Position numbers and translations under genes: made by a program. A stretch of DNA of 64,000 nt, from positions 6,750 through 70,749 of the forward strand of contig JBBCGE010000003.1 of the NCBI GenBank assembly GCA_037200545.1. The letters are read 5' to 3'. Shown piece after piece: positions 5,220 to 37,306 of the stretch. How positions within the stretch are numbered: position 1 is the stretch's first letter; each line of letters begins with the position of its first letter. Origin of the DNA: Limisphaerales bacterium. Its GTDB lineage: Bacteria > Verrucomicrobiota > Verrucomicrobiia > Limisphaerales > UBA11358. The notes below the pieces were generated by a model. That model was given only the letters and a program-made list of their open reading frames with translations, made no database searches and was not told the DNA's origin.

Positions 5220-5220
5220 G

Positions 5221-7250: not shown

Positions 7251-7264
7251 GTGGGAAAATCAAA

Positions 7265-8359: not shown

Positions 8360-8422
8360 GACTGCTTCAGCACCGCTTACGACTATCGCGACCGCCACTC
8401 TGGCCAAACCAGGACACTGCTC

Positions 8423-8560: not shown

Positions 8561-8566
8561 GGGCGA

Positions 8567-9400: not shown

Positions 9401-9500
9401 CTGTCGTCTTGGGCTTTGTAGTATTCGGCCTTTAGCCAGATTTATTGAGCCATAGGCTCGACGCTACAAGTTTCGCAGCCGTGGGCTTGAAGACGGCAGC
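9400..9500. repeat. imperfect long palindrome (REP-like) between convergent genes
   Basis: The outer arms are gctgtcgtctt (9400-9410) and aagacggcagc (9490-9500). Inner complementary blocks are tgtag/ctaca and gagcc-ata-ggctc. It probably acts as a bidirectional transcript end. Confidence 0.5.
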
Positions 9501-9584
9501 GCTTAAATTTCTACACCGTTTGACTCTTTAGACATTGCTGCGCCCGGGACGGACGCACTCCGTCGAACAGACTGCCCTCATTTT

Positions 9585-14072: not shown

Positions 14073-14118
14073 TACCTCCGGTTCATCATACATATGGTTT
14101 TAATCATGGGAAATTATT

Positions 14119-14209
14119 TGTTCCAAATTGTCGCCACACAAAGCGCCCAGACCGCGTCCCAATGCAGGTTTTGCCATGCGCGCAGGACAGGGAGTTGTCA
14201 ATTTGAAGC
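14119..14209. repeat. direct repeat copy B: displaced parB 5' remnant (encodes MAKPALGRGLGALCGDNLEQIISHD*)
   Basis: See copy A. The minus-strand ATG at 14174-14176 opens a 25-codon remnant that stops at 14100-14102, 27 nt upstream of the LRR gene start. Confidence 0.85.
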
Positions 14210-14264
14210 GGAAAAGTGACTTGGCAAAATCAACAGCCGGTGGTTCAATTATTAAAGACGCCAA

Positions 14265-15488: not shown

Positions 15489-15593
15489 AACTTTTGCCTT
15501 TGGGGGCTTTAGCTTCAACCGCCAGCTATATTCTTTAATCGAAAATGCTGCTTGGAAAAAATATTGAAAAATGGTTTAACTGGCCATAATCAG

Positions 15594-16775
15594 ATGAAAA
15601 ACCTGCTGATCGATGCCATTCTTTTCTGTGCAATAATCACAGTTGCAAGTTTTGCTTATGCTCAAACTTGGAGCCAGTCAGGCGCTCCTTTGGGTTTAAT
15701 ACTTTCTGGAGCCATGTCTGCCGATGGATCCAAAATAATCGCCGTAGGATCAGGTAACCCAGTTGTTTCATTAGATTCGGGAAAGACTTGGGCAACAATC
15801 GTTGACACTAATCCAGCAATAAATTTTGAATTTCAACATTTTACCCAAATTGCTTCGTCCTCACTTGGGAAAAAATTAATGACTGTTCAAGGTTATGCAC
15901 CATATTCCAATTCAATCTATCTTTCAGAAGATTTTGGGCTAACGTGGACGCCACGCTCGCCGAAACAACTTTGGCGGTTCTGTGCAATTTCGGCTGATGG
16001 GAGCAAACTTTTCGCGGGTGTGAACGGCGGGTTGATTTATAAATCGACCGATTTTGGAACCAATTGGATTCCCACCGGTGCGCCTAGTGCTGGATGGTCG
16101 TGCATCACTCTTTCGGCTGACGGAACTAAGCTTGCAGCAGGCATAGGGCAAACTACAACAGGTAAAATTCACATATCAACCAATTCGGGAATCACATGGA
16201 CAGCGACGAGTGCCCCCAGTAATTTTTGGTATAGCATCGCTTCATCGGCTGACGGAAGTCATCTCGTGGCGACGAGCAGCAGCGGCACTTATGTTTCGAC
16301 GAATTCGGGAAGCAGTTGGATACAATTCAGCTTCCCGGGTTTATCGGCAGCAGTTTCAACCGATGGAAGCAAATTGATCATTGGCAACATAGTGAATAAT
16401 GGGAAGATTTATACTTCGACTAATTTTGGGATGAATTGGGCAACAAATGTTGTTCAAAATATTTCAAATGTGAGTTGGAGAAGTGTGGCCTCTTCCGCAG
16501 ATGGATCTTTATTGCTGGCTGGAACTGACGGTGGGCTTTGGATTTATCGAGCAATATCATCACCGCAATTAAATTTAAAAGCATCCCGCGCCAACCTTGC
16601 TTTTTCTTGGTTGATTCCTTCGACAAACTTCGTATTGCAGCAGAACGTAGATTTGGTTACGACAAATTGGGTGACGTTGACCAACGAACCCACGCTCAAT
16701 CTCACCAACCTGAACAACGAGCTGGTTCTTTCTCCATCCAATAACAGTGGCTTTTTCAGGTTGATTTCGCAATAG
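15594..16775 (+). CDS. secreted BNR/Asp-box beta-propeller protein (paralog of 14265..15488)
   Basis: I prefer the ATG at 15594 (MKNLLIDAILFCAIITVASFAYAQT signal) over the track's TTG at 15552. The blade architecture is the same, and the last ~75 codons are almost identical to the upstream paralog. Confidence 0.85.
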   Translation: MKNLLIDAILFCAIITVASFAYAQTWSQSGAPLGLILSGAMSADGSKIIAVGSGNPVVSLDSGKTWATIVDTNPAINFEFQHFTQIASSSLGKKLMTVQGYAPYSNSIYLSEDFGLTWTPRSPKQLWRFCAISADGSKLFAGVNGGLIYKSTDFGTNWIPTGAPSAGWSCITLSADGTKLAAGIGQTTTGKIHISTNSGITWTATSAPSNFWYSIASSADGSHLVATSSSGTYVSTNSGSSWIQFSFPGLSAAVSTDGSKLIIGNIVNNGKIYTSTNFGMNWATNVVQNISNVSWRSVASSADGSLLLAGTDGGLWIYRAISSPQLNLKASRANLAFSWLIPSTNFVLQQNVDLVTTNWVTLTNEPTLNLTNLNNELVLSPSNNSGFFRLISQ

Positions 16776-16820
16776 AACTTTTACCTTTGGACTTCGAGCT
16801 TTGGACTTTAATCTTCATCC

Positions 16821-17246
16821 GTGAGTCATAAAAGCGCCCGCATCGCCGCAATGATCGGATCCTTCCAAGGACATAAACTCGACGCGCATTATCTTGGTTA
16901 TTTCGATTGCTTCAACCGTCAGCTTTTTTACGAGGCGCACGATGTGTTGGAGGATTTATGGCTCATAGATAGACACGGCCCGGATGGGAATTTTTACAAG
17001 GGACTTATCCAGCTGGCCGGCGCGTTTGTGCACCTGCAAAAGAACCGGTTGCGCCCGGCGGCGGCGCTTTTCAAGCTGGCCCAGGCGAACTTTGAAAAAT
17101 ACCCGCCCGTCCATCATCATCTGGATTTAAGGGCGGTTTATGCCTTGGCCCGGAACTGGCTGCTGGAATTGGAGCGGGACGGCTTTGCTGGCAACCCGCT
17201 CACGACGGCGAATGTGCCGCAGTTGACATTGTTGACTCTGAAATAG
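16821..17246 (+). CDS. DUF309 domain protein
   Basis: The protein contains FNRQLFYEAHDVLEDLW...FYKGLIQLAGAFVHLQKNR, which is the typical DUF309 helical pattern. It uses a GTG start. Confidence 0.7.
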   Translation: MSHKSARIAAMIGSFQGHKLDAHYLGYFDCFNRQLFYEAHDVLEDLWLIDRHGPDGNFYKGLIQLAGAFVHLQKNRLRPAAALFKLAQANFEKYPPVHHHLDLRAVYALARNWLLELERDGFAGNPLTTANVPQLTLLTLK

Positions 17247-17256
17247 ACGGTCTCAT

Positions 17257-18171
17257 ATGAAAATGAAACGCATCCTGTTGGCGGGCGGCAGCGGCTTTAT
17301 CGGCCGGGCGCTGGCCAAGGCGCTGATCGTGCGCGGTTACGAAGTGATCATATTGACGCGCACTCCACGTCGGGGTACAGGTTTCCGCGAGGTGGAGTGG
17401 AGCGGCGCGCATATCGGCGAATGGATTCAGCATTTGAATGGAGCGGAAGCGGTGGTGAATCTTACCGGTCGAAATATCAACTGCCCGCACACGAAGGAAA
17501 ATCTTCAGGAAATTTTGGAATCTCGCGTGAATTCCGTCCGTGCCATCGCACAATCTTTTCCGCATGTCAAAAAAGCGCCACGCGTCTGGGTGCAGGCGGG
17601 AGCGGTGGGTTTTTATGGCGACACGGGCGACAGGCTATGCGAGGAGGTTTCGCCGGTCGGCGATGACACGCTGGCGGATATCTGCAAACAATGGGAGGAT
17701 GCTTTTAATTCTGCCGACACTCCCAAGACGCGCCATGTTTTGTTGCGGATCGGTTTTGTGTTGGGTAACGACGGCGGGGCCTTGCCGGTTTTAACCAAGT
17801 TGACCAAATGGTTTCTCGGTGGTGCCGCCGGCAAGGGCAAACAATACATCAGTTGGATTCATATAGCAGATCTGGTGCAGATGTTCATCGCCGCCATCGA
17901 GCGTGATGATTTGACCGGAACATACAATGCGGTCGGCGCCAGCCCGGTGACCAATGCAGAATTCATGAGCGAATTGCGCCATGCCCTCCGTCGTCCCTGG
18001 AGTCCGCCGGTGCCGAAATTTGCCATCCGCATCGGTGCCAAGAAAATGAAAAGCGAACCTTCGCTCGTGCTGGCCAGCCAATGCTGCGCCCCCATCCGTT
18101 TTCTGGAAGCGGGGTTTGAATATGAATTTCCCAAGCTGCGCCCCGCTTTGGAAAATCTTCGTCGCGGATAA
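17257..18171 (+). CDS. TIGR01777/YfcH-type NAD-dependent epimerase family protein (with DUF1731-like C-terminus)
   Basis: The N-terminus carries a Rossmann motif (LLAGGSGFIGRALAKAL). The C-terminus reads RFLEAGFEYEFPKLRPALENL. Confidence 0.85.
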   Translation: MKMKRILLAGGSGFIGRALAKALIVRGYEVIILTRTPRRGTGFREVEWSGAHIGEWIQHLNGAEAVVNLTGRNINCPHTKENLQEILESRVNSVRAIAQSFPHVKKAPRVWVQAGAVGFYGDTGDRLCEEVSPVGDDTLADICKQWEDAFNSADTPKTRHVLLRIGFVLGNDGGALPVLTKLTKWFLGGAAGKGKQYISWIHIADLVQMFIAAIERDDLTGTYNAVGASPVTNAEFMSELRHALRRPWSPPVPKFAIRIGAKKMKSEPSLVLASQCCAPIRFLEAGFEYEFPKLRPALENLRRG

Positions 18172-18386
18172 AGTTTTCACTTCCAACGCATGGGCACGCG
18201 CTGATCCGTTGCGAATTTTCAACACAATCCATCCTGCCGGTTCCATTAATTTGTCTGTCATCCGGATAATTTCAATTGTGAAGAAGTCACCATTGACAGA
18301 ACGTAGCGTCGTCGGTTACAAACGGCGCAAGGTTGTATCTGGGATTTTTTGATTCACAAGTTGTACGTCGGTGGCCGCTGAAACTT

Positions 18387-21300
18387 ATGAAAAAAATCGA
18401 GCCGGTGCATGTTCTCGGACGGATTTTCCTCTTCGCATTTGCCACTTCAAGTTTCCCACTCGAAACGGAAGTCGAGGCTGAAACCGAAACCGATCGCACC
18501 AATCTGGCCGTGATCGTCCGGCACGCTCCGAGCCTGAACGGCGGAACCATCCAAGGCTCGCTCCAGCAGCTTAACGGCGAGAATATGACGATCAACAGCG
18601 GCTTTACCATGACTGGCGATCTGCTTGTGCCCGGCGTGCCGACAGTTGTATCGAATGGAAGGCCCGTTTATTCAGGAACCATTTCCGGAACCGGTGCCGC
18701 GTCGCCCACGGGATACAGGGTTACTTTTAATGGCAATACTTCCCTGCGTTATTTGCGGACGCGGACCACCCCGGTTTCATTGCCCACTGTTTCAGTTCCA
18801 CCTTCGCCCGCCGGCACCCGCACAGTGAACATCAACAGTGCCGGGCAATCTTATGGCGATGCCAGTACATTGCGCAATCTGACTCTTAACGGGAACGTCG
18901 GCATGATCGCGGTGCCGCCTGGCACTTATGGAAGTTTTACGGCAAATGGCGGTTCAGGATTTGTGCTGGGGGTCGTGGGCGGACTTCAGGCAATGAATTA
19001 CAATTTACAAAATCTGAATTTGAACGGCGGTTCCACTTTAAAAATAACTGGTCCTGTGGTGTTGACCCTCGCCAATGGATTCAATGGCAATGGAGCGATG
19101 GGCGCGTCCAATAATCCGGCGTGGTTGCAGCTTCAACTGGCCAATGGAGGATTCACGCTCAATGGAGGCTGCGCGTTCTACGGGCAGGTGTTGGCGCCGA
19201 ATGGAACGGTGATCATAAATGGCAACTCGACGTTGATTGGCACTTTAATCACTGACCAGTTTATATTAAATGGCGGCGGCATGGTGCAGCGGGGCGGGGC
19301 GGTCACACAAACGAATCAACCGCCGGTGGCCGCTCCGCAAAATATCACGCTGCCGGAAAATAGTTTGACCAACATCACCCTGACGGGGTCTGATCAACAA
19401 GGGAGAACGCAGGTGTTTACACTTCTGACACCGCCGGCACACGGAACGTTGAGCGGCGCACCGCCGAATGTAACCTACAAACCGGCGACAAATTATTTCG
19501 GCAGCGACACGTTCACTTTCAAAGTAAATAATGGCATCTTGGATTCGCCACCGGCGACCATTTCACTGAATGTCACAAGAGTCTATTATCCGCCTACGGC
19601 CTTCTCGCAGACTGTCACAAATTATCAAAATACGGCCCTGCCCGTGACATTGACCGGTTCTGATCCGCAGGGATATTCCTTGAATTACTTTGTGATGACA
19701 CAGCCCGGTCATGGAACATTGAGCGGGCCGACGCCCAATCTAATTTACCGGCCCGCCACAAATTATTATGGCAACGATTCCTTTACCTTTCGGGTCAACA
19801 ATGGAATAACCAATTCACCTGCCACCGTCATCAACATCACCAACCAGCCGGTGGACTACCCGCCAATTGTCGTGGCCGGGCCGGATCAATTGATCATTTT
19901 GCCAATCAGCAGTGTCACGCTTAATGGCTCAGTTTATTTTTCTCCTTATCCCAGAACAACAAACACAATTGTTTGGAGCAAGGTGAGTGGTCCTGGTGCC
20001 GTCATTTTCAGCAATCCTTCAAACAGCCTGACATCGGCGACTTTCAGCCAGTCCGGCGTGTACAAGCTTCGCCTGTTTGCCACGGATTCATTTTTAAGCA
20101 ACAGCAACGATCTCACAGTTATTGTGGATGCACCGCCAGTAGTCAACGCAGGACAAGCCTTGACGAATAATTTTCCGGGCACGATCACCTTGACGGGATT
20201 CGCCAGTGACGACGGCTTGCTCACCAATGCACCATTGACCGCGATTTGGAATAAAATCAGCGGGCCGGGCACGGTCACGTTTGGAAACGCAGCAGCAACA
20301 AATAGCGCGGCTATTTTCAGCACTAACGGAATTTATATGCTGCGCCTCACAGTGGACGACGGCATTGCCACCAATCACTCTGATATAACTGTCATCGAAA
20401 ACTTGCCGCCACTCGTCAACGCCGGTTCCACTCAAACAGTGAATTTTGGCGCAACAGTCACCTTGGCCGGGATGATCGCTGACGACGAATTGCCGGATAG
20501 CATTCTTACCAGCGTCTGGAATAAAATTAGCGGGCCGGGCAATGCTGCGTTTGCCAATGCGACTGCAACCAACACCACGGTTATCTTCGATCAATCCGGC
20601 ATCTACGTTTTAAGTCTCACGGCCGATGATGGCTTCTCCACGAACAGCAGCAATGTGACTGTCATCATCAATCAGCCTCCAACCGTTTCTGTCATGGCAG
20701 ATGAATTAATGGTGCAATTGCCATCCACTGCCACTTTGAGCGGTATTGTTTCAGATGACGGTATTCCAAATGGGATATTGAATAATACTTGGAGTCAAGT
20801 CAGCGGACCCGTCACGGCCCTTTTCAGTAATGTCAGCGGGACGAACACGACCGCCAGCTTTAGTCAGCCTGGCATTTATATCTTAAGACTAACGGCAGAC
20901 GATACGATGGCAACTAGCAGCGGCGAAATCTCCGTGAATGTATTGCCAGTGTTAAACGCCAACCACGCGCCACAAGCCTTTGGGCAATCGTTGAACGTAA
21001 ATGAAGGCGAACCCTTGGCGATCACGCTCAATGGAATGGATCCCGACGGCGATGCTTTGACTTTCAACGTGATAATTCCACCCACTCACGGAACGTTGAG
21101 CGGGTCGGCATCAGACCTGATATATCTTCCGGAGACCGGCTATACCGGTGATGATGCATTTGTGTTTGTGGCCAATGATGGGAAAGCTGACTCAGGGCCG
21201 GCAATTGTTTACATTTTGATTAATCCGTTAAACTATGCTCCCATAATTTCTGTTCCAGCAGATCAAACGGTCACTGAAAATCCGATTCTCCAATTTGACA

Positions 21301-24300
21301 TTTATAAAGCCATCTCAGTTTTCGATGCGGACGCAGGCAGTGACTTGCTTCAACTTTCGCTTGCGGTTACGCATGGCACACTGATTTTAGGGACGACCAG
21401 CGGTTTGCTTTGGGTCACGGGAAGCAATGGTTCAAGCAACATTGTGGTGAAAGGTTCGTTGGACGATCTTAACAACTCGCTGGCTGGGCTTACCTACATC
21501 GGGGCTACAGGCTTCGTTGGTTCTGATAGCCTTGAAATAAGTGTTGATGATCTTGGCCATGCCGGGAGCGTTGGAAACCAGGTTGATTCAAAGTCCATAA
21601 CCATCATCATAAACCCAGCCGTTCACTTTTCAAAGTCGGCCACCGCAGGCACTAATTTTTGGGTCGCCCGGCTGCCGGGCCTAGGAACTACCCGGATGCG
21701 CTGGATCATGCTGCTGGCTGAACAGGATACAAGCGTAACCGTGATCGTGCCTGACCGATATACTCAATTCCACGACGATGGAACTTTTTCGACCGCGCCG
21801 GGAGGAACTTCTACAATAGAACTACAGGCAGGGGTGCCCTTCATGGGGGCATTGGAGCAGTTGAACAGGTTTTCGCCAGTCCTCACTTCTGGCACGATTA
21901 CAAATTCGGCTTTTAAAATATCTTCCACCGAACTCGTCTCCGTATTTGTCACCGACTTTTCGTTCAATGATTCCGACGCGTTTCGTGCTTTGCCGACAGA
22001 AGTGCTGGGCACCAATTACGTCATTACGGCATATGGCAACTTTCAATTGTTCCCCGGAAATGTGTTTGGCAGTCAGTTCTCGGTTACGGCTGCGGAGAAC
22101 GAAACCGAGGTTGTGATTGTGCCCGCTGTTTCCACAGGCGATCATCCCGCAGGCCAGCCTTTTACCGTGACGTTGCAACAAGGGCAAACCTTCGGCCTTC
22201 GTCACACCGAGACGGCCACGGGCGACCTCACAGGATCTACGTTGACGGCCAGCAAGCCCGTTGCCGTGCTCGCAGGCAACGCCTTTGCGACCATACCGCC
22301 GGGCGAAGGTTCAGCTTCCGATATTTCCGAACAACTGATGCCGGTGGAGCATTGGGATTCCGAGTATGTGGTCACACACCTCGCTGGTCGCGCCAGTTAT
22401 GCCATGCGTGTAGTGGCCGCTTATGATGGAACAGCCGTTCAGCTTTCCGGTCTTGGCGAAACCAATTTGAATCGCGGTCAATTTTGTGAATTGCTTCTGA
22501 CGAACGATCTTCATGTGATTGTCAGCCAGCCGGTGGCCGTCTGCCAATATGCACTTGGTGATCCATCTGACAGTTTGCCGGGAACTCCCACCATGATCTG
22601 TGTGCCGGGCGTGCATCAAGGTTTGACCGACTCACAATGGATGACCTCGGAAGCAGTTCAGACCGTCAATTTTGGCGGCAGATTCTCTGCTGTTCCTCTT
22701 TATACGAACTTTGTCAATCTCGTGGTGCCCGGCGGCGCATTTGCCAGCCTGAGGATCAATGGCGACCCTTTGCCGTCCGATGCTTCTTGGAACATCGTCG
22801 GTAACGGCGAGTTCATTGATGTTTGTTTACCGGTCACCAATGGTGTTTACCACATTCATTGTTCGGAACCGGTTGTGACGATCAACTATGGTGTGTTCGA
22901 GAATGTGGCCGGTTATGGACTGGGTTCTTATGGACTGGCCGGACCATTTTCGCTTCCTGTGTTCCCATTGAATGTTCAAGTCGCAGTGGCATCACCTACC
23001 AATGGAAGCGTGGTCATCGCTGGTGTAGAAACATCCGTCGTAGCTAACATCTCCGATCCGCAAAATCTGGTGACCAATGTGGAATTTCGTGTCGACGGCA
23101 ATAAAATTTCTGAAGGCGCAACCACTAACTTTACGTGGACTCCCGTGCAGGCCGGTAATTATGCGCTTCAATTCGTTGCGTCCGCCTTGACTGGCGATAG
23201 CGTCACTTCCTCACCGGTGAATGTGACTGTCAGTTATGATTTCACATCCCAGGGCGTGTTGATTGTCAGCCCGTATGATGGCGAATCCGCCTATGTCAAC
23301 GGCCTGACGCTCATTGCCCTTGATTTTGATGATCCGCTCGGCCTGTTTGATTACGCGGAGTTCTTTGCCAATAATGTAAGTCTAGGGGAGACAACTAATA
23401 CGGTCTTTAACTGGGTTCCATCGAGCACTAATGACTATGTGCTGTCAGCCATCATTTATGATTTTCTCGGCAATGCTTACCCTGCAACCAACACCGTCAT
23501 GGTCCATGCGATCCTGCCGCCGCGTCCGCAGCTGGCTATCACCTCTCCCACCGATGGCAGCCGGGTGCGGGTCGGCGTTGAATCAGTTATCATCGCCAGC
23601 CTGTTTGACCCGGGAAATCTGACGACCAACGTGCAATTCTTTGCGGATAGTGTAAAAGTTTCTGATAACTCCACCTACTACTCGTGGACGCCGGCCCAAA
23701 TTGGCGGTCATGCATTGCAGGCCATTGCTTTGACTTCCGATGGGGAAAACGTCTCTTCTGCAATCGTCAACGTCACCGTCGCCGAGATGTTTCCGCCGGT
23801 GGTCAATCTGCTGTCACCGACCAACAACCAATTGTTCGCCTCCGGCATTGCTCCATTGTTGAGTGCGCAGGCAGTTGATTCAGATGGCTTGATCACCAAT
23901 CTGACACTGACGCTGGACAACACAACGGTGGCGGAAACGAATCTCGCCTTTTTGTCAGTGACCGCCACGAACGCCAGGCCAGGTTGGCATCAAGCAGTTG
24001 CGGAAGCCGCCGACAATGACGGTCTGACCGCCTCGTCGGAGATCGTTTCTTTCTTCGTTGAGCGGAGCGTGAACACCGCGTTACCGGTACCCGGCCAGTT
24101 TGCAGCCCGTGCACTTTCCGCCACGGAAATTGAATTGTCATGGTCACCAGTCGGCACCAACGGACTCCCCCAAAACATACTTGTCCAACGCTGGGATTTT
24201 ACCGGTTTGCAATGGATTGAAATCACTCAAGTTCCAGTTGTCAGTACGAACTGCCTCGATTCGGCCCTCGATCCCGAAACGTATTATCGCTATCGCATTG

Positions 24301-27300
24301 CATGCATTGATGGCAATGGCAACCGGTCCGCCTTCACGGCGGAAACCAACGCCACGACACGCACGGTGGTCCCGAACTACGCGGTCATAGATTTGTCCAC
24401 CGCCGTCGCCAGTTCACTCACCAACCTCGTTCCGGGCGGCAGCCTTCTCACCAACGCCGGCCTCACGCAATTTGACAGTCGTCGAACTGTGCCACTTGGA
24501 ACGCTCCACGCGGAATCTATTCTCGGCAGCAAAGCAGCCGTTCTTCGCCAGGCAGTTGCCCGCTTCACAGAACAATGGCCGCAGATTCAACTGGATTACG
24601 ATCCGATATTGCTGTCGCCTCATTCCATCATGCCGCGCGTCGGCTATCTCACCGGTCCGGGCGGAGCGGGCATGACCGTGTCCGCTGCCACGGCACAAAT
24701 GTTTGATCCAGCGGATACAAGCCAGCCGGTTAAAGCATTTCTTAAGGAGCACCAAGATTTGTTTGGATTCGGCCCGGAAGAAATCACCAACGCCGTTGTG
24801 AACCGGGATTATATTTCGGCATTAAACGGAGCGCGGACAACCGTGTGGCAACAACAAGTCGGCGGTATTCCAGTATTTAACGCGCTTTTTATCGGCCACA
24901 TGACCAGTGTCGGTGAACTGGCCGCAGTGGCCTGTGATTTCATCCCAGCCCCGGCGCAGTCAGCCAATTCCAATGTTCTGACAGCGGTGCAGAACAGTTA
25001 CAGTTTGCCACTGACGGGCGCGCAGGCATTACAGGCTGCCGTGAATAACGTCGGCGACGTTTTTGCGCCGGCTGACATCATTAGTCAGAGTGTGATTCAG
25101 GGAATAGCACGCAGTCAAAGTTATGTCGCCGCAAAAGGAATCAAGGGTGCTGCCCATGCAGGCTTGACGTGGTTTCCCGCCAGCCGCAACGAATTAAAAC
25201 TCGCCTGGCAGGTCACCTTCACCAGCCAGTGGCGGAATGAAATGTATCTCGCATTGGTTTCCGCCGAAGACGGCGAAATTCTTTATCGCCGGAATCTCAC
25301 CGCTGACAGTTCAGATGCCAGCTATCGTGTTTATACTGATTCCAGTCCCGCACCGATGTCGCCGGGCTGGTCCATGCCGGGCAACGTCCAGCCACCCTTG
25401 GTTGATCGTTCCTTGGTGACAATCACTGCATTGGACACCAATGCCTCGCCTATTGGCTGGATCAATGACGACGACAACCAAACACTCGGCAACAACGTAG
25501 ATGCGCGTCTGGATCGTAACGACGATAATTTGCCTGATCTGCCACGTCCCGTCGGCAATCCATCGCGCGTTTTTGACTTCGGATTGGATCTTGGATTAAA
25601 TCCAGTCACCTATGGCGATGCGTCGGTCGTGCAATTATTTTATTGGGATAATTGGATGCACGACGTGTTATATGGGTTGGGTTTCACAGAAGCCGCCGGT
25701 AATTTTCAGTCGGATAATTTTGGCCGTGGCGGGCAGGGCGGGGACTCCTTGCAAGCTGATGCCCAAGACGGCTTGAGCCTTACCGACAGGCGTTACCGTA
25801 ATAATGGCAACATGTCCACACCGCCCGATGGTCACACGCCGTTGATGCAGATATATGTGTTCGATGGCGCGAACCCCGCCCGCGACGGCAGTCTTGATGC
25901 GGAAATAATCCTTCACGAATATACGCATGGCTTGAGCGCACGTTTCATCGGCGGTGGTGCGGGCATTGACGCGCAGCAAACCATGGGCATGAGTGAAGGC
26001 TGGTCGGATTTTTTTGCACTGGCATTGTTAAACGATCCATCAGCGGATCCTGACGCCGCCTATCCAGTCGGCAGTTACGTTGCCTACCATGGCTTTGGCA
26101 CCATGTTCGATGAGAATTATTATTATGGCATCCGGCATTATCCTTATTGCACGGACACGAACAAAAATCCCCTGACGTTCGCAGATATTGATCCCGGCCA
26201 AGCCAGCGCTCATGCCGGAGTGCCATGCAGTCCGTTGACCGGCCCCCTCAATCCCGCGTTGGCCGACGAACCGCATGTGGAAGGTGAGATATGGTGCATA
26301 ATGCTCTGGGAGATGCGGGCCGCGTTGATCCACAAACTGGGAGCGGAAGCAGGCAACCGGCTGGCGCTGCAACTGGTGACAGATGGCATGCGTCTCTCGC
26401 CGCCTAATCCAAATTTTGTGCAGGCGCGCAATGCGATTTTACTGGCGGACCGGATATTGTCCAACGATGCAGAAGCGCCGGAGATTTGGGCAGCCTTCTC
26501 GAAACGCGGCTTGGGATACGATGCCAAGGCACCATACAGTTACACTACGGCCGGCGTGCAGGAATCGTTCTCGTCCGCGCCTGCGCTGGTTGTGGAGCAG
26601 ATTGTCATTCAAAGCGACGACGGAAGTGCGAATATTGGCACGAATACGGATTTTAGCCTGTTCATGGCTGTTTATAACCAAGGTACAGCCACGGCCCAGC
26701 AAGTCGCCGCCCAAATTACGACCACAACACCGGGCGTTCAAATTCTGCAATCGCAATCTGCATACGGTGACATTCCACAAAATCAGTCGCGCGGCAATTC
26801 GGTTTTGCTACAAGTCCATACATTGCCCGGATTTGTGGCGGGCACACTGATCGATTTGAATTTTACAATTAATTCTGTTCCGCACTCGGTCACAAGCAGA
26901 CATCGTCTTTACACAATTAATTTAGACCCGGTTCTGCCAAATAATGACAATTCTTCTGCGGAGCCAACTTCTGACTCCGCTGTCCCGAAGGATTTGACGC
27001 CATACGATCTCGGCAATCTGGAACCGTTGTGGATGGCAGATGATGCAAGCTGTTTACTGAAGGCGGGACTAGGCAAATATATATTGTGGCGGCCCGGCGT
27101 AGAATCAATACCGATGATTAACCCGAATTTTCTGGCGCATCGATTGACGCGGCATGGGATTGTCGTTGGTGAATTGGTAGTAAGCGTGGATCACGACATC
27201 TTCGGCGATATGTTCACCAACACAGTCGGTGCCAAGTGGATTCCCGGCCAAACGGTGCCAACGCCGCTAACCGCCGGTTTTTATGCATATCCCAAAGATT

Positions 27301-28415
27301 CGTTAGTTGGACAGAATGTGGGGCTGGCATACGATTTGATTAATCTTACGGCGGGCTTGCCAACTTATTTAGGCGGTGTGGCCAGATACCCTGAATTTCA
27401 CTCGGTGTGGGATATGAATGACAATGGTCAATCGGCCGGAGCCGCCTCGGTGTATTTACGCCCGTCAGATCTGGATGAAGATGGGTTTATCGGCACCAAT
27501 GACGTGCGCTTTGGTACATTGCAGCAGAGTGAATTCGATGCCCAAGGCCGGATAGATTGGATGCAATCAGATGAGCGCACGCTGTCTGCAGGCCATTCTG
27601 GGTCGGCGATCAGACGGGTCGATTACAATGCGCTATTGACTACGGCGACACGTTTCGAGACTGATGCGACTTGGAATTGGGTAGGCCCGATTAATTTCAG
27701 TGGTGGTTCGGTCTTTTCAGTAGGGCTGCTCATCAATGACCAAGGTGATGTTGCTGGCACGGGAGCGACCCGCACGGGCAATGCTCTTTTTGATGCCTCT
27801 AGTCCGACCCGCGTATTTAGATGGAATTCCAGTGACGGTGAATTTTCTTTAGGCGGACCTCATGTACATGAACTGGAACCTTTGCCCGGCGGACAACATG
27901 CATTTCCGCTGGCGATGAATCAGGCGGGTGATATCGTGGGCTATTCAGACCAGAATATCTATGATTTGAATCAAAACAAGATTCACGCCACCTATTGGAG
28001 CGCGGCGACCACCAGCATCCAAGACTTGGGAACTCTTGGAATGACACCAGGCAACAGTCAGGCTTTTGCCATTGATGACAGCCAGCAAATTGTGGGAGTT
28101 TCACAAAAAGCTGACGGCAACCCTGCAGCTGTACTTTGGCGATTCAATCACAACACCAACAGTCCTGCCGGAAATGGCTTTTGGGAGAGCACGGATCTTA
28201 ATGGTCGTTCATCCGAGAATAGTTGGGATCTGCTTAATGCAGTGGGCATTAATACTGACGGCCTGATTTTGGCATACGCTAAAAATACAGCGGGCGAAAA
28301 CCACGCGGTGCTGCTGGCAACTCCACAATTGGCAGTGGATAATGATCGTGATGGACGATTACATTTGACGATCCAGACAAAACGCCAGCCAACAAGCCTT
28401 ATCGTTTTTGGCTAA
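18387..28415 (+). CDS. giant secreted multidomain protein with M36 (fungalysin) metallopeptidase domain; main reading frame
   Basis: The ATG at 18387 starts a signal-like MKKIEPVHVLGRIFLFAFATSS. Domains in order are: an Asn/Gly-rich beta-helix-like region; cadherin-like/VCBS ~95-aa repeats (..GSD.QG......P.HGTLSG....Y.P...Y.G.D.F.F.V.NG); at least 5 PKD-like repeats (W.K.SGPG..); an IgGFc-binding-like region (DLTGSTLTASKPVAVLAGN); Ig-like repeats; and FN3 (LSATEIELSWSP). These are followed by an FTP propeptide and the M36 catalytic core (HEYTH 25914-25928, EGWSD 25995-26009), then HAF-type repeats at about 27400-28330. Confidence 0.9.
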   Translation: MKKIEPVHVLGRIFLFAFATSSFPLETEVEAETETDRTNLAVIVRHAPSLNGGTIQGSLQQLNGENMTINSGFTMTGDLLVPGVPTVVSNGRPVYSGTISGTGAASPTGYRVTFNGNTSLRYLRTRTTPVSLPTVSVPPSPAGTRTVNINSAGQSYGDASTLRNLTLNGNVGMIAVPPGTYGSFTANGGSGFVLGVVGGLQAMNYNLQNLNLNGGSTLKITGPVVLTLANGFNGNGAMGASNNPAWLQLQLANGGFTLNGGCAFYGQVLAPNGTVIINGNSTLIGTLITDQFILNGGGMVQRGGAVTQTNQPPVAAPQNITLPENSLTNITLTGSDQQGRTQVFTLLTPPAHGTLSGAPPNVTYKPATNYFGSDTFTFKVNNGILDSPPATISLNVTRVYYPPTAFSQTVTNYQNTALPVTLTGSDPQGYSLNYFVMTQPGHGTLSGPTPNLIYRPATNYYGNDSFTFRVNNGITNSPATVINITNQPVDYPPIVVAGPDQLIILPISSVTLNGSVYFSPYPRTTNTIVWSKVSGPGAVIFSNPSNSLTSATFSQSGVYKLRLFATDSFLSNSNDLTVIVDAPPVVNAGQALTNNFPGTITLTGFASDDGLLTNAPLTAIWNKISGPGTVTFGNAAATNSAAIFSTNGIYMLRLTVDDGIATNHSDITVIENLPPLVNAGSTQTVNFGATVTLAGMIADDELPDSILTSVWNKISGPGNAAFANATATNTTVIFDQSGIYVLSLTADDGFSTNSSNVTVIINQPPTVSVMADELMVQLPSTATLSGIVSDDGIPNGILNNTWSQVSGPVTALFSNVSGTNTTASFSQPGIYILRLTADDTMATSSGEISVNVLPVLNANHAPQAFGQSLNVNEGEPLAITLNGMDPDGDALTFNVIIPPTHGTLSGSASDLIYLPETGYTGDDAFVFVANDGKADSGPAIVYILINPLNYAPIISVPADQTVTENPILQFDIYKAISVFDADAGSDLLQLSLAVTHGTLILGTTSGLLWVTGSNGSSNIVVKGSLDDLNNSLAGLTYIGATGFVGSDSLEISVDDLGHAGSVGNQVDSKSITIIINPAVHFSKSATAGTNFWVARLPGLGTTRMRWIMLLAEQDTSVTVIVPDRYTQFHDDGTFSTAPGGTSTIELQAGVPFMGALEQLNRFSPVLTSGTITNSAFKISSTELVSVFVTDFSFNDSDAFRALPTEVLGTNYVITAYGNFQLFPGNVFGSQFSVTAAENETEVVIVPAVSTGDHPAGQPFTVTLQQGQTFGLRHTETATGDLTGSTLTASKPVAVLAGNAFATIPPGEGSASDISEQLMPVEHWDSEYVVTHLAGRASYAMRVVAAYDGTAVQLSGLGETNLNRGQFCELLLTNDLHVIVSQPVAVCQYALGDPSDSLPGTPTMICVPGVHQGLTDSQWMTSEAVQTVNFGGRFSAVPLYTNFVNLVVPGGAFASLRINGDPLPSDASWNIVGNGEFIDVCLPVTNGVYHIHCSEPVVTINYGVFENVAGYGLGSYGLAGPFSLPVFPLNVQVAVASPTNGSVVIAGVETSVVANISDPQNLVTNVEFRVDGNKISEGATTNFTWTPVQAGNYALQFVASALTGDSVTSSPVNVTVSYDFTSQGVLIVSPYDGESAYVNGLTLIALDFDDPLGLFDYAEFFANNVSLGETTNTVFNWVPSSTNDYVLSAIIYDFLGNAYPATNTVMVHAILPPRPQLAITSPTDGSRVRVGVESVIIASLFDPGNLTTNVQFFADSVKVSDNSTYYSWTPAQIGGHALQAIALTSDGENVSSAIVNVTVAEMFPPVVNLLSPTNNQLFASGIAPLLSAQAVDSDGLITNLTLTLDNTTVAETNLAFLSVTATNARPGWHQAVAEAADNDGLTASSEIVSFFVERSVNTALPVPGQFAARALSATEIELSWSPVGTNGLPQNILVQRWDFTGLQWIEITQVPVVSTNCLDSALDPETYYRYRIACIDGNGNRSAFTAETNATTRTVVPNYAVIDLSTAVASSLTNLVPGGSLLTNAGLTQFDSRRTVPLGTLHAESILGSKAAVLRQAVARFTEQWPQIQLDYDPILLSPHSIMPRVGYLTGPGGAGMTVSAATAQMFDPADTSQPVKAFLKEHQDLFGFGPEEITNAVVNRDYISALNGARTTVWQQQVGGIPVFNALFIGHMTSVGELAAVACDFIPAPAQSANSNVLTAVQNSYSLPLTGAQALQAAVNNVGDVFAPADIISQSVIQGIARSQSYVAAKGIKGAAHAGLTWFPASRNELKLAWQVTFTSQWRNEMYLALVSAEDGEILYRRNLTADSSDASYRVYTDSSPAPMSPGWSMPGNVQPPLVDRSLVTITALDTNASPIGWINDDDNQTLGNNVDARLDRNDDNLPDLPRPVGNPSRVFDFGLDLGLNPVTYGDASVVQLFYWDNWMHDVLYGLGFTEAAGNFQSDNFGRGGQGGDSLQADAQDGLSLTDRRYRNNGNMSTPPDGHTPLMQIYVFDGANPARDGSLDAEIILHEYTHGLSARFIGGGAGIDAQQTMGMSEGWSDFFALALLNDPSADPDAAYPVGSYVAYHGFGTMFDENYYYGIRHYPYCTDTNKNPLTFADIDPGQASAHAGVPCSPLTGPLNPALADEPHVEGEIWCIMLWEMRAALIHKLGAEAGNRLALQLVTDGMRLSPPNPNFVQARNAILLADRILSNDAEAPEIWAAFSKRGLGYDAKAPYSYTTAGVQESFSSAPALVVEQIVIQSDDGSANIGTNTDFSLFMAVYNQGTATAQQVAAQITTTTPGVQILQSQSAYGDIPQNQSRGNSVLLQVHTLPGFVAGTLIDLNFTINSVPHSVTSRHRLYTINLDPVLPNNDNSSAEPTSDSAVPKDLTPYDLGNLEPLWMADDASCLLKAGLGKYILWRPGVESIPMINPNFLAHRLTRHGIVVGELVVSVDHDIFGDMFTNTVGAKWIPGQTVPTPLTAGFYAYPKDSLVGQNVGLAYDLINLTAGLPTYLGGVARYPEFHSVWDMNDNGQSAGAASVYLRPSDLDEDGFIGTNDVRFGTLQQSEFDAQGRIDWMQSDERTLSAGHSGSAIRRVDYNALLTTATRFETDATWNWVGPINFSGGSVFSVGLLINDQGDVAGTGATRTGNALFDASSPTRVFRWNSSDGEFSLGGPHVHELEPLPGGQHAFPLAMNQAGDIVGYSDQNIYDLNQNKIHATYWSAATTSIQDLGTLGMTPGNSQAFAIDDSQQIVGVSQKADGNPAAVLWRFNHNTNSPAGNGFWESTDLNGRSSENSWDLLNAVGINTDGLILAYAKNTAGENHAVLLATPQLAVDNDRDGRLHLTIQTKRQPTSLIVFG

Positions 28416-30251
28416 ACGACGATCAGGATGAATCCTACAGTGAATTGCAATGGACTGAAAATAGCCCTGAGATATACGAATATCCGCCCAGACATCATGA
28501 TTTTGACGACCGGATTATCAACAGCCCCCGTGACTGCGAAGATTTAACCAGATTGTGGTTGGATGCAGGTAATATGTTGAATTCTCTTAAAAATCAAGAT
28601 GGCGACATGTATATTGGACTTAAGTGGGAAAATACGGGCAATACCACTCCATCCATTCGATTGTTCCAATCCGCCGACACTAATGGCGGCCTTGGTCATA
28701 TCAAGAATGCGATGATTGCTGCTAAACAAGCTGATTCAGCAAGCGAATTTAGTTACTGCTTGACGAGCATGGGTACTGGCGTTGATCAAGTTCGCCCCGG
28801 CGGTCGCACGGCAGATTTTATTTTTAGCAAAAGCATGTTTGCCGAATTGACCGGGTCTCAATCAAAGCTTCATCTCCTGTTTGAAGGTGTTAGTGAAGGC
28901 AAAGGAGAGCTTCGGCTTATTTTGCTGAAAAGAACCGGTGAGGATTCTTGGATAAGTTTAGGCGAATGTTCCAGCATTTGGCTGGATTTAAAAAATATCC
29001 GGCGCATGTATATGCGGCCTACAGCACTCCTTTGCCTGAAAACTTTCCGCTGCCCTGGCAGGTACAAGCTTGGGATTCTTCTCCTGCAAAATTCCCTTAT
29101 CTAAAAACTGCGGATGGTTCGCTGGCCATCCCGCAGACCAATCTTGGATATGGCATTGGTGATAGCCGGGAAGTTGGCTCGCAATATCCGTTCGATCCCC
29201 CGCCCGATGAACAAAGGAAATGCGTGGTGTTTGTACATGGCATTGACTTGGATGTCCCCACTCAGCAAGGATATGCACAGTCATTCTTCAAAAGGCTGTG
29301 GTGGGAAGGTTATAAAGGAAGATTAGCGGCATTCCGTTGGGCTACAACACTGACAGATGGGGCCGACTTTTTAAAACTGGGCAGGGAAAACATTTCGATT
29401 TACAACTCGGGAGAATATCGTTCGTGGAAAGGCGGGACCTCTCTTAAAAATATGTTGATGCTCTAAGATCGGGATTGGGGAATGATGAAATCATCAGCAT
29501 AGCGGGACACAGTTTGGGCAATGCTTGTGTGGGCGAGGCCTTCCGTCAAGGAATGAAGGTGAATAGTTACGTGGCCATGGAGGCCGCAGTTCCGCTCAGT
29601 TGTTATTATCCGGAAACAGAAAACCCACCGATAGAGTCAAGTCTGGTTTTGGCCGATGTTAATAGTCCTACACCAAAATATGCCCAAAGACTGGGTTATC
29701 ACGGATATTTGAGCGATATTGGCGGCAACATGAATAATCGTGTCAGTTATTATAACCAATTAGACTTTTGGCTTATGACCGGAACATTGAATCCAAGCAT
29801 AGAAATTGCGATGGGAACGGTGGTGGATCAGGCTTTGCATTGGCCTCTTGGTTCTAACATGGTGTCTTTAGCATTCAACATTGTGAAAAATGTCGACTGG
29901 ATCACAAATCAAAAACGTAAGCCGGACAACAGAATCGGCAATGGCCGATATAAATTTGACACAATACCCCGCTTTTTCACTGGACCCTACACCCGCCCGG
30001 TTGCTGATCCACACGAGGGCATGTCCTTTGTTGCCAGATCACGAACCAGACCATTGGGAGGAGGCGAGCCGCCTCCTGATTTTCAAGATTTAAATCTAAA
30101 AGAGATTTATAGATTTGATGATCAGCGTTCTTGCCATAGCGGTCAGTTCCAACGCAATATCCAGTTGATGTATGGTAATAACGACGGCATTCAATGGAGT
30201 GAACCATTCTATCACCGAATGATGTCTGATCTCCGAGTCTCTCCTAATTAA
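28354..30251 (+). CDS. C-terminal continuation of the giant protein (three frame breaks): uncharacterised domain plus DUF900-like alpha/beta hydrolase (lipase-type)
   Basis: The track fragments are 28445..29104, 28948..29466 and 29475..30251. The sequence reads through as ..DNDRDG|ITFDDPDKTPANKPYRFWLNDDQD.., then ..IWLDLK|KYPAHVYAAYS.. (A-run 28990-28995), then ..GGTSLK|KYVDALRSGLGNDEIISIAGHSLGN (A-run 29446-29450). VVFVHG and GHSLG (29505-29519) form a serine-hydrolase nucleophile elbow. Confidence 0.7.
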
Positions 30252-30254
30252 CTT

Positions 30255-31364
30255 ATGAATAAACGAATAGTTAATTCGGTTTTTTGTGCCGTCATCGCAT
30301 TATTGTTGGGATTTTGGTTCTTTCGAGGGGTCGCTCCGCGCGAAAATGCTCCCGTTCCGCTGGCCGCGACCAGTAATGATATGGTCAAGGCAATCAATAT
30401 AACCAACCTCGCGAATCTGGCTGCAACACTATCCGCTGTCACCTCAAAGCTGGTCTATTACAAGGGCGGATTGAAAAGCGTTTATCTTTTTAAATCCACC
30501 AACTACCCGCCGCAAACCGCCGGAGAAAAGGCCATGTGGGAATGGTGGGATGCCATGGATAAGGCTGATCCCCAGTTCCAGTGGAAGATGCCGATTGAGT
30601 TTTACGGAAAAGTGGTGGATCAGTTTGGCGAACCCGTGCCGGAGGCGATGGCAGAGTTGGGTTTGGACAACGGTCATCGGCCTCGTTCCAGACCCAAAAA
30701 TAAAAGTGGTTGCCGACGCGAACGGAAAGTTTGAATTGAAGAATGTACAAGGTAAAATTTTAGGCGTATTTCTTTCAAAAAGTGGATATATTTTTGGGCA
30801 TAATTCGCAAGGAGATTTCGAATATGCTTCATTTTATCAAGATAACTTCCATGTTCCCGACCCGAATCATCCAGTCCTCTTTCACCTGCAAAAACTGACA
30901 GGGGCGGAACCGATGTATAAATATCTACCGTACGGTGAGATTCCACTGAGGGGATCACCGCTAGTTTTGGATGTGAAAAAAGGAAAGGTGTCAAGTACAG
31001 GCGACCTGGCTTTTCTGTAGTTTTGGGAAAAACCAACCGGTATGGTTCGGATTTCACAGTCATCATGCAGGGGCTGAACGGATCAGGTTTTGTTTTAAGC
31101 GATGATGAGTTTCTTTTCAAAGCGCCCGAATCGGGTTATCAAAATTCTTTTACTGTAATTCACAATGATCAAGTTCCTAATTACAGGCCACAGCAAATGC
31201 TACGATTTTATGTGAAGACTGGCACGGGCAAATATGCCGCTGCTGAAGTTACCATCAGCGTGTGGGGTGATTTGTCCCGGGCTGACTTTAGATCGATTCT
31301 CTATTACAATCCCAGTGGTTCGCGGAATTTGGAGTTCGATCAGGACAAATGGATAAATCGCTGA
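30255..31364 (+). CDS. membrane-anchored protein with carboxypeptidase-regulatory-like beta-sandwich segment (two frame breaks)
   Basis: It starts 3 nt after the giant gene's stop. The N-terminal anchor is VFCAVIALLLGFWFF. The fragments 30255..30734, 30550..31020 and 31023..31364 join as ..PDPKIKVVADANGKFELKNVQGKILGVFLSKSGY.. and ..STGDLAF|SVVLGKTNRYGSDF.. (T-run 31011-31014). Confidence 0.6.
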
Positions 31365-31419
31365 ATTAAATTCAAATTTGGTTGCTAACCAAGAACACCA
31401 GTTCCCGATAACACATTGA

Positions 31420-32927
31420 AAAACACTTTGTCACAGCCAGCACCGCCAGAGAGCCAAGTTGATTCGCCACTTTGGCAACCAGCGATTGACGTTCACGAAC
31501 GCGACTGGAACGTATGTGAATTTCCGTTATGATTCGATTGGCCAGTTGAAGGTGGCGGACAGCACGGTGAACACGGAAGACCGGGGTTATCAATATGACA
31601 CGGCATGGAACCTGAACCGGCTTACAAACAACGGGTCGCCCGCAACTTTCAGCGTGGACGGAAAAAATCAATTAACCACGATTGGAAGCGGCCATTACTA
31701 TTATGATGGCAATGGCAATCTCACGAACGATTCCAGCCTGCATGTCGCCACCAACTATTATGCCTATGACGACGAAAACCAACTGATTGCGGTGCAGCCT
31801 TTTGGGGGGGGCGACGATGCAGTTTGTTTATGACGGCTTAGGCCGGCTGCGCGCACAACTACAATGGCAGACAAATGCCATCGGTGGCGGTGGCGGCGGG
31901 GGCGGTGACACAGATGCCATGCGGGGCGGGGCCACGACCGACAGCGATGGGCCAATAGGCGACGTGTCCTTGATGAGCGGCATTTATTATATTTACGATG
32001 GGCATCGGGTGATTCAGGAGCGGGACACCAACAACACGCCGACGGTGAGCTATACGCGGGGAAAGACTTGTCAGGCAGCCTAGGAGGCGCGGGCGGGGTT
32101 GGTGGATTGCTGGCACGCTCGGATACTTTTTATTCCGGCAACTTCACGAGCCATGCTTTTTATCATGCAGATGGAAACGGGAACATCACTTACCTTGTTG
32201 ATGGCAGTCAGGCTTTGGCTGCGAGCTATCGTTATGATGCGTTTGGCAATTTGCTCAATTCCAGTGGCCCGCTGGCCAGCGACAACACCTACCGCTTTTC
32301 CAGCAAGGAATGGGTTCCAAGCGTGAATGGGTATTATTATCTTTACCGCTTTTATCGGCCAGATTTGCAGCGATGGTTGAATCGCGATCCGATTGAGAAT
32401 GGGGAGGCTTCAATCTCTATGGATTCATTGGAAACGATCCATTAAACTGGGTAGATAAATATGGTTTAATTATTACAATTTGCGGCAGTATGTCTTTTAT
32501 GGAAAAAGTGAACGAGGCTCTTAAGGAACTTCAAAATTCGAAGCGTGGGAAGGAATTATACGACGAAGCACTAAATAGTACGAACACTTTGACAATTAGT
32601 GAAGGTGAAAATTCTCTCGGAGGGGGTGATATTCGTTTCTTTGATTCTTCTGTCTGGCTTAATCCTGAGTCGCCGAATTTCCTGTCGTCAGGCCAACAAA
32701 AAGCAAGTGAAAAAGACGGTGAACAAGTACCAAACACTTCTCACGGTGGTGTCGTTGTACTCGCACACGAAATGGGCCATGCGGCGGGGTATTCAGATGA
32801 TCCTAACAATTCTAATGCAAGAGGTAATAACATCTTGGAAAATGAAAACCCAGTTAGGGATTATTATCATTTTGATAAAAGGACAACAACTAGCGGAGCT
32901 TCAGTTTATCCGAGGAACAAAAAGTAA
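31420..32927 (+). pseudogene. 5'-truncated Rhs/YD-repeat C-terminal fragment with HExxH toxin tip (three further frame breaks)
   Basis: YD repeats are present (YYYDGNGNLT, YAYDDENQLIAV, FVYDGLGRLR, YIYDGHRVIQE, YRYDAFGNLL), as is the core-end motif YRFYRPDLQRWLNRDPIGE.GGFNLYGFIGNDPLNWVDKYGL once the frame is corrected near 32395. A 145-aa tip follows (32490-32927) with VLAHEMGHAAGY. The frame opens only at 31420, so there is no Rhs N-terminus or shell start. Confidence 0.75.
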
Positions 32928-32937: not shown

Positions 32938-33384
32938 ATGATGAAAACAAGACACTTTGTTTACTATATTTCCAGCTTGGCAATAATTTTTTCAGGGTGT
33001 GTGTGCCAGCATCCTATGGAAAAAGAGACTCCCATGGAGAAGGAGTTTCTAAGAAAAGAACTCTCAGGTGATTTACGGCAAATTCTAGTCAGTGAGGCCG
33101 AGATTCAAAAATTGTCGAATGAGGGGAATTGCCTGATGATCTACGGCCTTCACATAAACGAAAAAAAATATTGGCGCAATCTGTCAGTAGGAACTGGTAA
33201 ACAATTAGAAGATGTTCTAAATTATTATGGAAATAGTGCTTTTGTTTGGGATTCTGCTTTAATCGTGGCGAAAAAAGATATGATTTTGCGGAGGCCAGAT
33301 TGGCACGAACGCGTGAGTACAAACTTCAATAAAGTAATAATAACTCCGGCGATATACTTCGGTTTTTTCCACTCGAATAAATGA
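32938..33384 (+). CDS. putative immunity lipoprotein for the Rhs HExxH tip
   Basis: An ATG ATG start lies at 32938, 11 nt after the toxin stop. The lipobox-like signal is MMKTRHFVYYISSLAIIFSGC. The sequence is visibly AT-rich and matches no family I recognise. The upstream part of the track ORF (32599-32937) is out-of-frame overlap with the toxin. Confidence 0.55.
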   Translation: MMKTRHFVYYISSLAIIFSGCVCQHPMEKETPMEKEFLRKELSGDLRQILVSEAEIQKLSNEGNCLMIYGLHINEKKYWRNLSVGTGKQLEDVLNYYGNSAFVWDSALIVAKKDMILRRPDWHERVSTNFNKVIITPAIYFGFFHSNK

Positions 33385-35902: not shown

Positions 35903-35959
35903 GGCATCAGGCTAACCAATCGAAAAACAAAAGGCCAGTTTTCGCAAGCGCGACTGACT

Positions 35960-37254: not shown

Positions 37255-37306
37255 GTTCAGTGGTGCCTTAATCAGCCATGTCAAATCAGGTTGACGGAAT
37301 GGAATG

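Follow-up and report, generated by a model that had tools for sequence, protein, structure and literature searches.

Lipase effectors of the type VI secretion system (T6SS), the Tle proteins, are paired with periplasmic immunity proteins, Tli. In polymorphic toxin systems (CdiA-CT/CdiI, Rhs-CT/RhsI and MafB; PMC3482391), a large constant secreted scaffold carries an exchangeable C-terminal enzymatic tip, identity breaks off sharply at a conserved junction, and a change of tip brings a change of the downstream gene; orphan tip and partner cassettes, partner arrays, a lower cassette GC content and a peptidase N-terminal to the tip are further features. Zhang et al. 2012 listed the tips Tox-ABhydrolase1-3 and mentioned neither M36/fungalysin nor HAF (PMC3482391). 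In archaea, the secreted alpha/beta hydrolase cinquedea is a bactericidal phospholipase A, and DUF900 is found on 69% of its archaeal homologues (10.64898/2026.06.10.730825); the function of DUF900 was still unknown as of 2024 (PMC11878206). Here we describe a giant exoprotein gene and its downstream partner gene in a 64,000-nucleotide stretch of a Limisphaerales bacterium (contig JBBCGE010000003.1 of assembly GCA_037200545.1, positions 6,750 to 70,749; hereafter the window). The locus shares the polymorphic toxin features listed above, and we think it probable that the pair is a polymorphic effector of the lipase type and its periplasmic immunity protein, the effector sitting on a Sec-exported giant adhesin-like scaffold whose cassettes are exchanged at a junction. 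The category, polymorphic toxin/immunity systems, is known; the scaffold, the toxin-tip family and the immunity family would be new to polymorphic toxin biology. We found no description of the giant-protein architecture or of the module-partner pair in the literature, in line with an earlier reading made from the letters alone (the sequence-only reading), which did not recognise the domain combination as a described architecture.

The sequence-only reading had guessed at polymorphic-toxin logic, and a direct test supported that guess. A common post-M36/HAF scaffold was present in 18 metagenome loci, and we compared C-termini with the scaffold identity held at 49-53% over 776 residues. On these equal scaffolds, the C-termini were 63-64%, 24% or 14% identical to that of the window. 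Type A loci (L084-86, L090, L092 and L096; 63-64%) had a window-like module and partner. Type B loci (L087, L088 and L093; 24%) had a PAD-like start followed by a very divergent alpha/beta hydrolase, and their downstream genes encoded signal-peptide proteins of 290-321 aa with weak CarboxypepD_reg matches; type C loci (L089, L097 and L098; 24%) showed the same features. Type D loci (L094 and L095; 14%) had an unrelated domain of ~400 aa, and the secreted protein encoded after it, of 345 aa, was unrelated too. The identity switch sat exactly at ...NHAVLL-x5-AVDxxRDG, and the downstream gene changed with the tip. GC content fell at this junction from ~0.50-0.53 to 0.44-0.47. In L002 (ENA ERZ25039479 contig_15835, 1-19052), the intact M36-to-hydrolase gene precedes an array in which two orphan C-terminal cassettes (at 5736-8627 and 10001-13704) are interleaved with seven partner paralogues, and paralogues come after each cassette. 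Such patterns of C-terminal exchange characterise polymorphic toxin systems in the definition of Zhang et al. 2012 (PMC3482391). Thus, the swapping of module/partner cassettes among strains argues for a polymorphic toxin system. The N-terminal head of the giant protein, which we also tried as a probe for polymorphism, was uninformative, as it is a generic adhesin head found across many unrelated architectures. The ~400-aa alternative domain of L094 (8174-10527) and L095 had no Pfam match; together with the 345-aa protein it is a candidate toxin/immunity pair.

A survey of GTDB species genomes covered 79 loci with the module, nearly all of them in Verrucomicrobiota. The module formed the C-terminal end of the host protein in all 79 loci. 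Host stop-to-stop frames ran from ~330 to ~2,400 aa, many being cut by contig ends, and the longest, in L005, had 4,038 aa; the repeats ahead of the module varied widely among hosts (TSP3, LamG, fn3, RCC1, Calx-beta and cadherin). A partner homologue lay directly 3' of the module in 72 out of 79 loci, or in 72 out of 73 when only loci with sufficient sequence on that side are counted. Of the seven exceptions, six had no more than 535 nt 3' of the module (contig or locus end), which is too short for a partner gene. Partner copies numbered two to five in 18 loci and seven in L002. Identity co-variation between module and partner was ambiguous among close relatives and was clear across tip types only. 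Searched against the full database with phmmer, the PAD-like part of the module returned 782 clusters at 50% identity, and the module system is therefore widespread; this domain was nearly always positioned 350-430 residues ahead of the C-terminus, in proteins of 560-3,700 aa. No second copy of module or partner was found in the window.

To describe the fold of the module, we used an AlphaFold2 model of P0005, the closest NCBI homologue (60% identical to the repaired tail of the window protein), built with 35 aligned sequences. The model had a mean predicted local distance difference test score (pLDDT) of 86.7 and a predicted TM-score of 0.88. A Foldseek search against the PDB returned PAD3, PAD4 and PAD2 as top matches (E ~1e-7, probability 1.0, 300-370 columns), followed by Lp-PLA2/PAF acetylhydrolase, monoglyceride lipases and cutinase/PETases. 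The region DNDRDG...FWLNDDQD...RDCEDLTR (28329-29017, + strand; invariant motifs VDxxRDG, FWxNxDxD and RDCEDLTR), previously called uncharacterised, is on the fold of this homologue model a pair of Ig domains like the N-terminal and middle domains of PADs, with conserved acidic motifs of the Ca-binding type. PAD_M (PF08527) matches occurred in 6 out of 35 homologues (best E 0.0016, under the gathering score), weak yet recurrent. The likeness to PAD2/3/4 thus extends to fold, to weak sequence matches under the Pfam cut-off and to acidic motifs with putative Ca binding, whereas the module continues into a serine hydrolase instead of a deiminase catalytic domain. These would be bacterial relatives of PAD Ca-binding domains in a non-deiminase context.

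The last domain (29140-30251, + strand) is a serine alpha/beta hydrolase, judging by a complete triad and the fold match of the homologue model. The sequence-only reading had left the Ser-Asp-His triad to be checked by alignment. Serine (GHSLG, 29505-29519, with the Ser codon at 29511-29513), aspartate (DFWL, 29763-29765) and histidine (HSGQF, 30135-30137) were invariant in alignments of 35 and 23 sequences, and all three were present in the window. DUF900 (PF05990) matched 17 out of 35 homologues (best E 1.3e-10) and 15 out of 23 (best E 2.1e-12), DUF676 matched 17 out of 35, and Tle3 matched only 1 out of 35, marginally (E 0.025). The label "DUF900-like hydrolase" therefore held in part: the fold assignment stood and homologues match PF05990, but the window's own repaired tail had no Pfam or NCBIfam match, even at E 10. 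By sequence, the domain would be a divergent relative of DUF900, not a clear member, with the label resting on the homologues. A PDB sequence search with the module profile returned chance-level matches only and no relative with a solved structure.

The hydrolase is most likely a phospholipase or esterase, predicted to act on bacterial envelope lipids. It resembles the Tle proteins in being a GxSxG alpha/beta hydrolase predicted to act on membrane lipids, with an adjacent extracytoplasmic partner that is often multicopy; unlike them, it falls outside the Tle families, is not accompanied by T6SS genes and forms the tip of a Sec-exported giant protein. The features in common with cinquedea, compared by description only, are secretion, an alpha/beta-hydrolase nature, a nucleophile motif of the form xHSxG and DUF900 among the homologues, and cinquedea demonstrates that hydrolases from this part of the fold can be bactericidal via phospholipid hydrolysis; by contrast, cinquedea is a 260-aa single-domain substrate of the twin-arginine translocation pathway, annotated as DUF726, with no partner gene (10.64898/2026.06.10.730825). 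If the proposed function is true, the module would offer a testable function for DUF900-type hydrolases.

The partner gene (30255-31364, + strand; 369 aa after repair), a candidate immunity gene, begins at an ATG 3 nt after the hydrolase stop codon (30249-30251). It encodes an N-terminal transmembrane helix, a linker, two CarboxypepD_reg-like beta-sandwiches and a C-terminal NPSGSRNLE, which bears out the earlier description of a membrane-anchored partner 3 nt downstream. A structural model (pLDDT 85) showed the linker between the N-terminal transmembrane helix and the two beta-sandwich domains to be disordered. Given the basic N-terminus (MNKR), the body of the protein would be predicted to face the periplasm. 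The family had more than 530 database matches, with "carboxypeptidase-like regulatory domain" as the best annotation, and a PDB sequence search with the partner profile gave chance-level matches only. In the complete genome of Roseimicrobium sp. ORNL1 (CP049143), we observed an orphan partner (L083, 10001-11038; 38% identity). Several unannotated genes come after it, and no module lies within 10 kb; this cultured strain is a possible experimental entry point.

The genetics of the partner also bear on a different function. Lipase-foldase pairs are likewise adjacent genes, and the foldase is membrane-anchored. The giant protein could accordingly be read as a multi-enzyme for nutrient acquisition at the surface, its scaffold displaying protease and esterase/lipase for digestion and its partner serving as a maturation, anchoring or steric-chaperone factor like the lipase-specific foldases. 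Consistent with this reading, the fold matches include cutinase/PETase-type esterases, no secretion or toxin-delivery genes lie close by in the window, and the head and Ig stalks are common to many giant Verrucomicrobiota proteins with glycoside hydrolase, lyase-annotated or lectin domains. However, arrays of two to seven partners, and orphans without any hydrolase, would be odd for a foldase. The joint exchange of C-termini and downstream genes, as cassettes, while the scaffold stays constant, the orphan C-terminal cassettes in L002, the lower cassette GC and the adjoining Rhs toxin tip speak against digestion as well, and we regard it as rather unlikely.

Turning to the whole protein, a 3360-aa open reading frame (ORF) spans 18333-28415 (+ strand, frame 0; stop codon 28413-28415), and its extension through three single-base frame breaks reaches 30251. 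The mechanical ORF start is TTG 18333; the likely start is ATG 18387 (MKKIEPVHVLGRIFLFAFATSSF, signal-peptide-like), from which the frame-0 portion runs unbroken over 18387-28355 and the repaired protein totals 3,955 aa (3,314 + 641). Rechecked in the sequence, the motif and stop coordinates and the 3-nt gap given in the sequence-only reading were all correct. On the + strand, the protein begins with an N-terminal beta-helix head (18510-19322; pAdhesive_15/DUF7305/bactofilin-like), which is generic and found on many large Verrucomicrobiota surface proteins with unrelated architectures. Pfam places Big_9, cadherin-like and K319L/PKD repeats in the stalk (19314-21932), followed by an IgGFc_binding domain (PF17517; 21975-22892, E 1.6e-48) and by three Big_7 Ig domains with a weak fn3 (22977-24338). 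Overall, the Pfam/NCBIfam scan counted four K319L-PKD, three Big_9 and three Big_7 modules, cadherin-like domains and the weak fn3. An FTP fungalysin/thermolysin propeptide motif (24798-24929; E 1.1e-3, 19.2 bits, slightly below the 21-bit cut-off), also present in L004, precedes the Peptidase M36 catalytic domain (25410-26525, aa 2360-2731). The post-M36 and HAF-repeat region (26610-28328) ends in the conserved ...NHAVLLATPQ, after which comes the exchange junction; the region around the HAF repeat is conserved in close relatives only. One HAF repeat (TIGR02913, 27912-28040, aa 3194-3236) exceeded its cut-off, with 24.1 bits against 22.65. Thus, of the modules named earlier, M36, PKD, IgGFc_binding, Ig and cadherin-like were confirmed by Pfam/NCBIfam, as were a weak fn3 and one HAF repeat above its cut-off.

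The M36 match (PF02128) was full-length, with E 1.3e-101, 341 bits against a cut-off of 23.3, and profile positions 17-368 of 368. Both the zinc motif HExxH (HEYTH, 25914-25928) and the downstream glutamate of EGWSD (25995-26009) were present. The protein thus shares a full-length catalytic domain with HExxH and EGWSD, and an FTP propeptide, with bacterial M36 metallopeptidases. It differs from the sortase- or type IX secretion system-dependent families in scoring far under their curated cut-offs (466 versus 1500 bits for NF038112, 347 versus 885 for NF038113 and 306 versus 1700 for NF038111) and in carrying an effector module at the C-terminus in place of a sortase-type tag. M36 was confined to the clade of the window and was absent from all 23 of the more distant module hosts scanned. 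As most module hosts lack M36, a role as an additional enzyme is more likely for it than one as an obligatory releasing peptidase. In L003 (3489-9169, SPRUCE 541 metagenome-assembled genome [MAG]), an ORF with the head and stalk (1,200 aa) directly adjoins one with the last HAF repeats and the module (712 aa). M36 is absent, and the two ORFs overlap by 61 nt; either part of the gene was naturally deleted or the assembly collapsed here.

With its size, its secretion, its two catalytic domains and an FTP propeptide that suggests proteolytic self-processing, the protein also recalls MARTX toxins, to which the sequence-only reading had likened it. Several effector domains, M36 and the hydrolase among them, would then be delivered together and set free by autoprocessing inside a target cell. 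The analogy found no support: Pfam/NCBIfam matches and the genes of the window revealed no RTX repeats, cysteine protease domain, type I secretion system genes or effector array, the M36 domain was missing from the distant hosts noted above, and the architecture is that of a scaffold with a single exchangeable tip. We consider such a multi-effector toxin highly improbable.

In the polymorphic effector model that we favour, a Sec-exported giant surface or extracellular protein would consist of a signal peptide, an ice-binding-like beta-helix head, an Ig/cadherin/PKD stalk and IgGFc_binding, then an FTP propeptide and M36 zinc protease, a HAF propeller and the exchangeable C-terminal effector module. 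The scaffold would present or release an exchangeable, Ca-dependent lipase-type effector. The partner would be anchored in the membrane with its beta-sandwiches on the periplasmic side and probably acts as an immunity factor that neutralises the hydrolase by binding it, and the cassette of module and partner would be swapped among related strains by recombination at ...NHAVLL-x5-AVDxxRDG. Self-processing by M36 with its propeptide is possible and might set the distal part free. Compared with the described polymorphic toxins, the giant protein lacks a two-partner secretion/FHA, Rhs, PAAR, LXG/WXG, MafB-N or PVC-metallopeptidase trafficking element, its scaffold joins M36 and a HAF propeller to an Ig/cadherin adhesin, and the tips belong mostly to one alpha/beta-hydrolase superfamily behind a PAD-like domain.

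Several observations weigh against this model. Neither secretion-system genes nor a recognised toxin-trafficking domain was found in the window, and the export features of the giant protein are just a signal-peptide-like start and the generic adhesive beta-helix head. The same head occurs on proteins with glycoside-hydrolase and other non-toxin domains. The alternative C-termini come mostly from one hydrolase superfamily and not from diverse toxin types. In Foldseek searches, the partner matched only generic prealbumin/Ig-like beta-sandwiches and no known immunity protein. To these we add the absence of family matches for the window's own tail, given above, and the indel pattern described below. 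A wider claim we advance tentatively, as possible and no firmer: that antibacterial lipase effectors of this kind (a PAD-like Ca switch plus a DUF900-type hydrolase, with its own membrane-anchored beta-sandwich immunity family) exist across the Verrucomicrobiota and are delivered from Sec-exported adhesin tips independently of the type V, VI and VII polymorphic-toxin routes, with M36 as the releasing or processing peptidase in this clade. Verrucomicrobiota are abundant in soil and water, and polymorphic toxin systems have barely been described in the phylum. How a Sec-exported giant adhesin would bring a lipase to a competitor is a question that follows from the model.

We placed the three frame breaks (+ strand) by alignment to ten intact homologues. 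At break 1 (28355/28356), one base is missing, and inserting it (GGA[A]CG) gives back the DGTITFDD of the homologues. At break 2 (29017/29018), one G is missing, and CGG[G]CC restores RMYMRAYSTPLPE; the A6 run at 28991-28996, another candidate site for this break, was ruled out by the homologue alignment. At break 3 (29446-29450), an A5 run stands where A6 is expected, and A6 restores SLKKYVDALRSGL. The ORF map shows same-strand ORFs 3' of the first stop at 28445-29104 (frame 2), 28948-29466 (frame 1) and 29475-30251 (frame 0). We rejected the possibility that these are separate genes, as the repaired 641-aa tail aligned end to end with continuous proteins (45-62% identity, 100% coverage, E down to 1e-245). 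L005, a short-read (Illumina) Verrucomicrobiia MAG, encodes PKD/Big/IgGFc_binding, M36 and the same tail in the same domain order in a single ORF of 4,037 aa. L004 has a continuous ORF of 1,976 aa, the L002 gene is unbroken from M36 through the end of the hydrolase, and six additional metagenome loci are also continuous. The proposal of one polypeptide with adhesin repeats, M36, HAF and a terminal serine hydrolase was thereby borne out, since relatives have the same set in a single frame. The partner gene has two further breaks (+ strand), an extra T in 30662-30664 and a T4 at 31011-31014 where T5 is expected.

The breaks might instead be real, with module, partner and Rhs tip forming a graveyard of decaying cassettes and the functional product being a 3,360-aa adhesin-M36-HAF protein that ends at 28415. 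Toxin/immunity cassettes are prone to decay. In addition, eight indels fall within 28355-32395 (~4 kb) versus none in the 10 kb upstream in the same gene, and several lie in runs of just 2-4 bases, shorter than the homopolymers at which such errors classically occur. Homopolymer runs of at least 5 bases are, however, 3.6 times denser per kb in the cassette, which accounts for the indel excess only partly. The repaired module retains 40/40 invariant and 52/54 near-invariant family positions and the repaired partner retains 21/21 and 40/41, neither with an in-frame stop. Long-read-style contigs of the relatives L001 and L002 are broken at positions other than those of the window, whereas short-read assemblies are without breaks. 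Damage also extends to other genes of the window: lnt is split into three collinear ORFs (two breaks) and a sodium:solute symporter gene into two (one break). Because these genes are broken as well, the assembly itself carries indels, and the two frameshifts in the housekeeping gene lnt in particular point to assembly indels. Taken together, we judge assembly error to be the likely cause of the three breaks and decay to be unlikely; the decay reading concerns the state of the gene in this genome, not its function. For this genome, the evidence favours continuity, and reads are needed for proof. Programmed frameshifting was rejected, as the breaks fall at different positions in different assemblies and relatives assembled from short reads have none.

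The broken genes elsewhere in the window were as follows. The lnt gene (apolipoprotein N-acyltransferase; 50752-52704, - strand) matches LNT_N profile positions 31-122, then 121-158, then CN_hydrolase. The symporter gene (54339-56143, + strand) matches SSF profile positions 43-260 and 343-406 on its two ORFs, likely an assembly frameshift. An ORF at 36388-37284 (- strand) matches Peptidase_M48_N alone, and its catalytic half may sit in 35960-36415 and 35195-35902 (- strand), so that the region 35195-37284 may contain a further frameshift. As the assembly of the window is of the long-read style and its housekeeping genes contain indels, gene calls there need matching caution.

Immediately downstream of the partner gene lies an orphan Rhs C-terminal fragment (31459-32927, + strand) with YD repeats (RHS_repeat, E 3.3e-5), the core end DPIGEWGG...NDPLNWVD and a Peptidase_M91-like tip with HEMGH (E 2.3e-8). 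The Rhs toxin tip noted earlier after the partner gene is thus real and M91-like. It is a fragment without the N-terminal core, and there is no Rhs core upstream. Three single-base frame breaks interrupt it, in the G8 run 31804-31811, at ~32062-32064 and at ~32395. A small predicted lipoprotein (32941-33384, + strand) follows and is a candidate cognate immunity protein for the Rhs tip. GC content is the lowest of the region at the toxin tip and lipoprotein (0.39-0.42) and 0.53-0.56 in the YD-repeat part. This adjoining orphan Rhs-M91 tip marks a toxin-cassette site. The remaining window is ordinary chromosome, with purA, uppS, an M16 peptidase, AMP-binding enzymes and a leucine-rich-repeat protein. 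The last of these, a BspA-type protein of 1,502 aa (LRR_5, E 1e-273; 9585-14093, - strand), is divergently encoded and lies upstream of the neighbourhood of the giant gene. Between 14265 and 16775 are two tandem BNR/sortilin-like paralogues of 407 aa each, one of which has a marginal Tli3 match (E 0.007), probably by chance.

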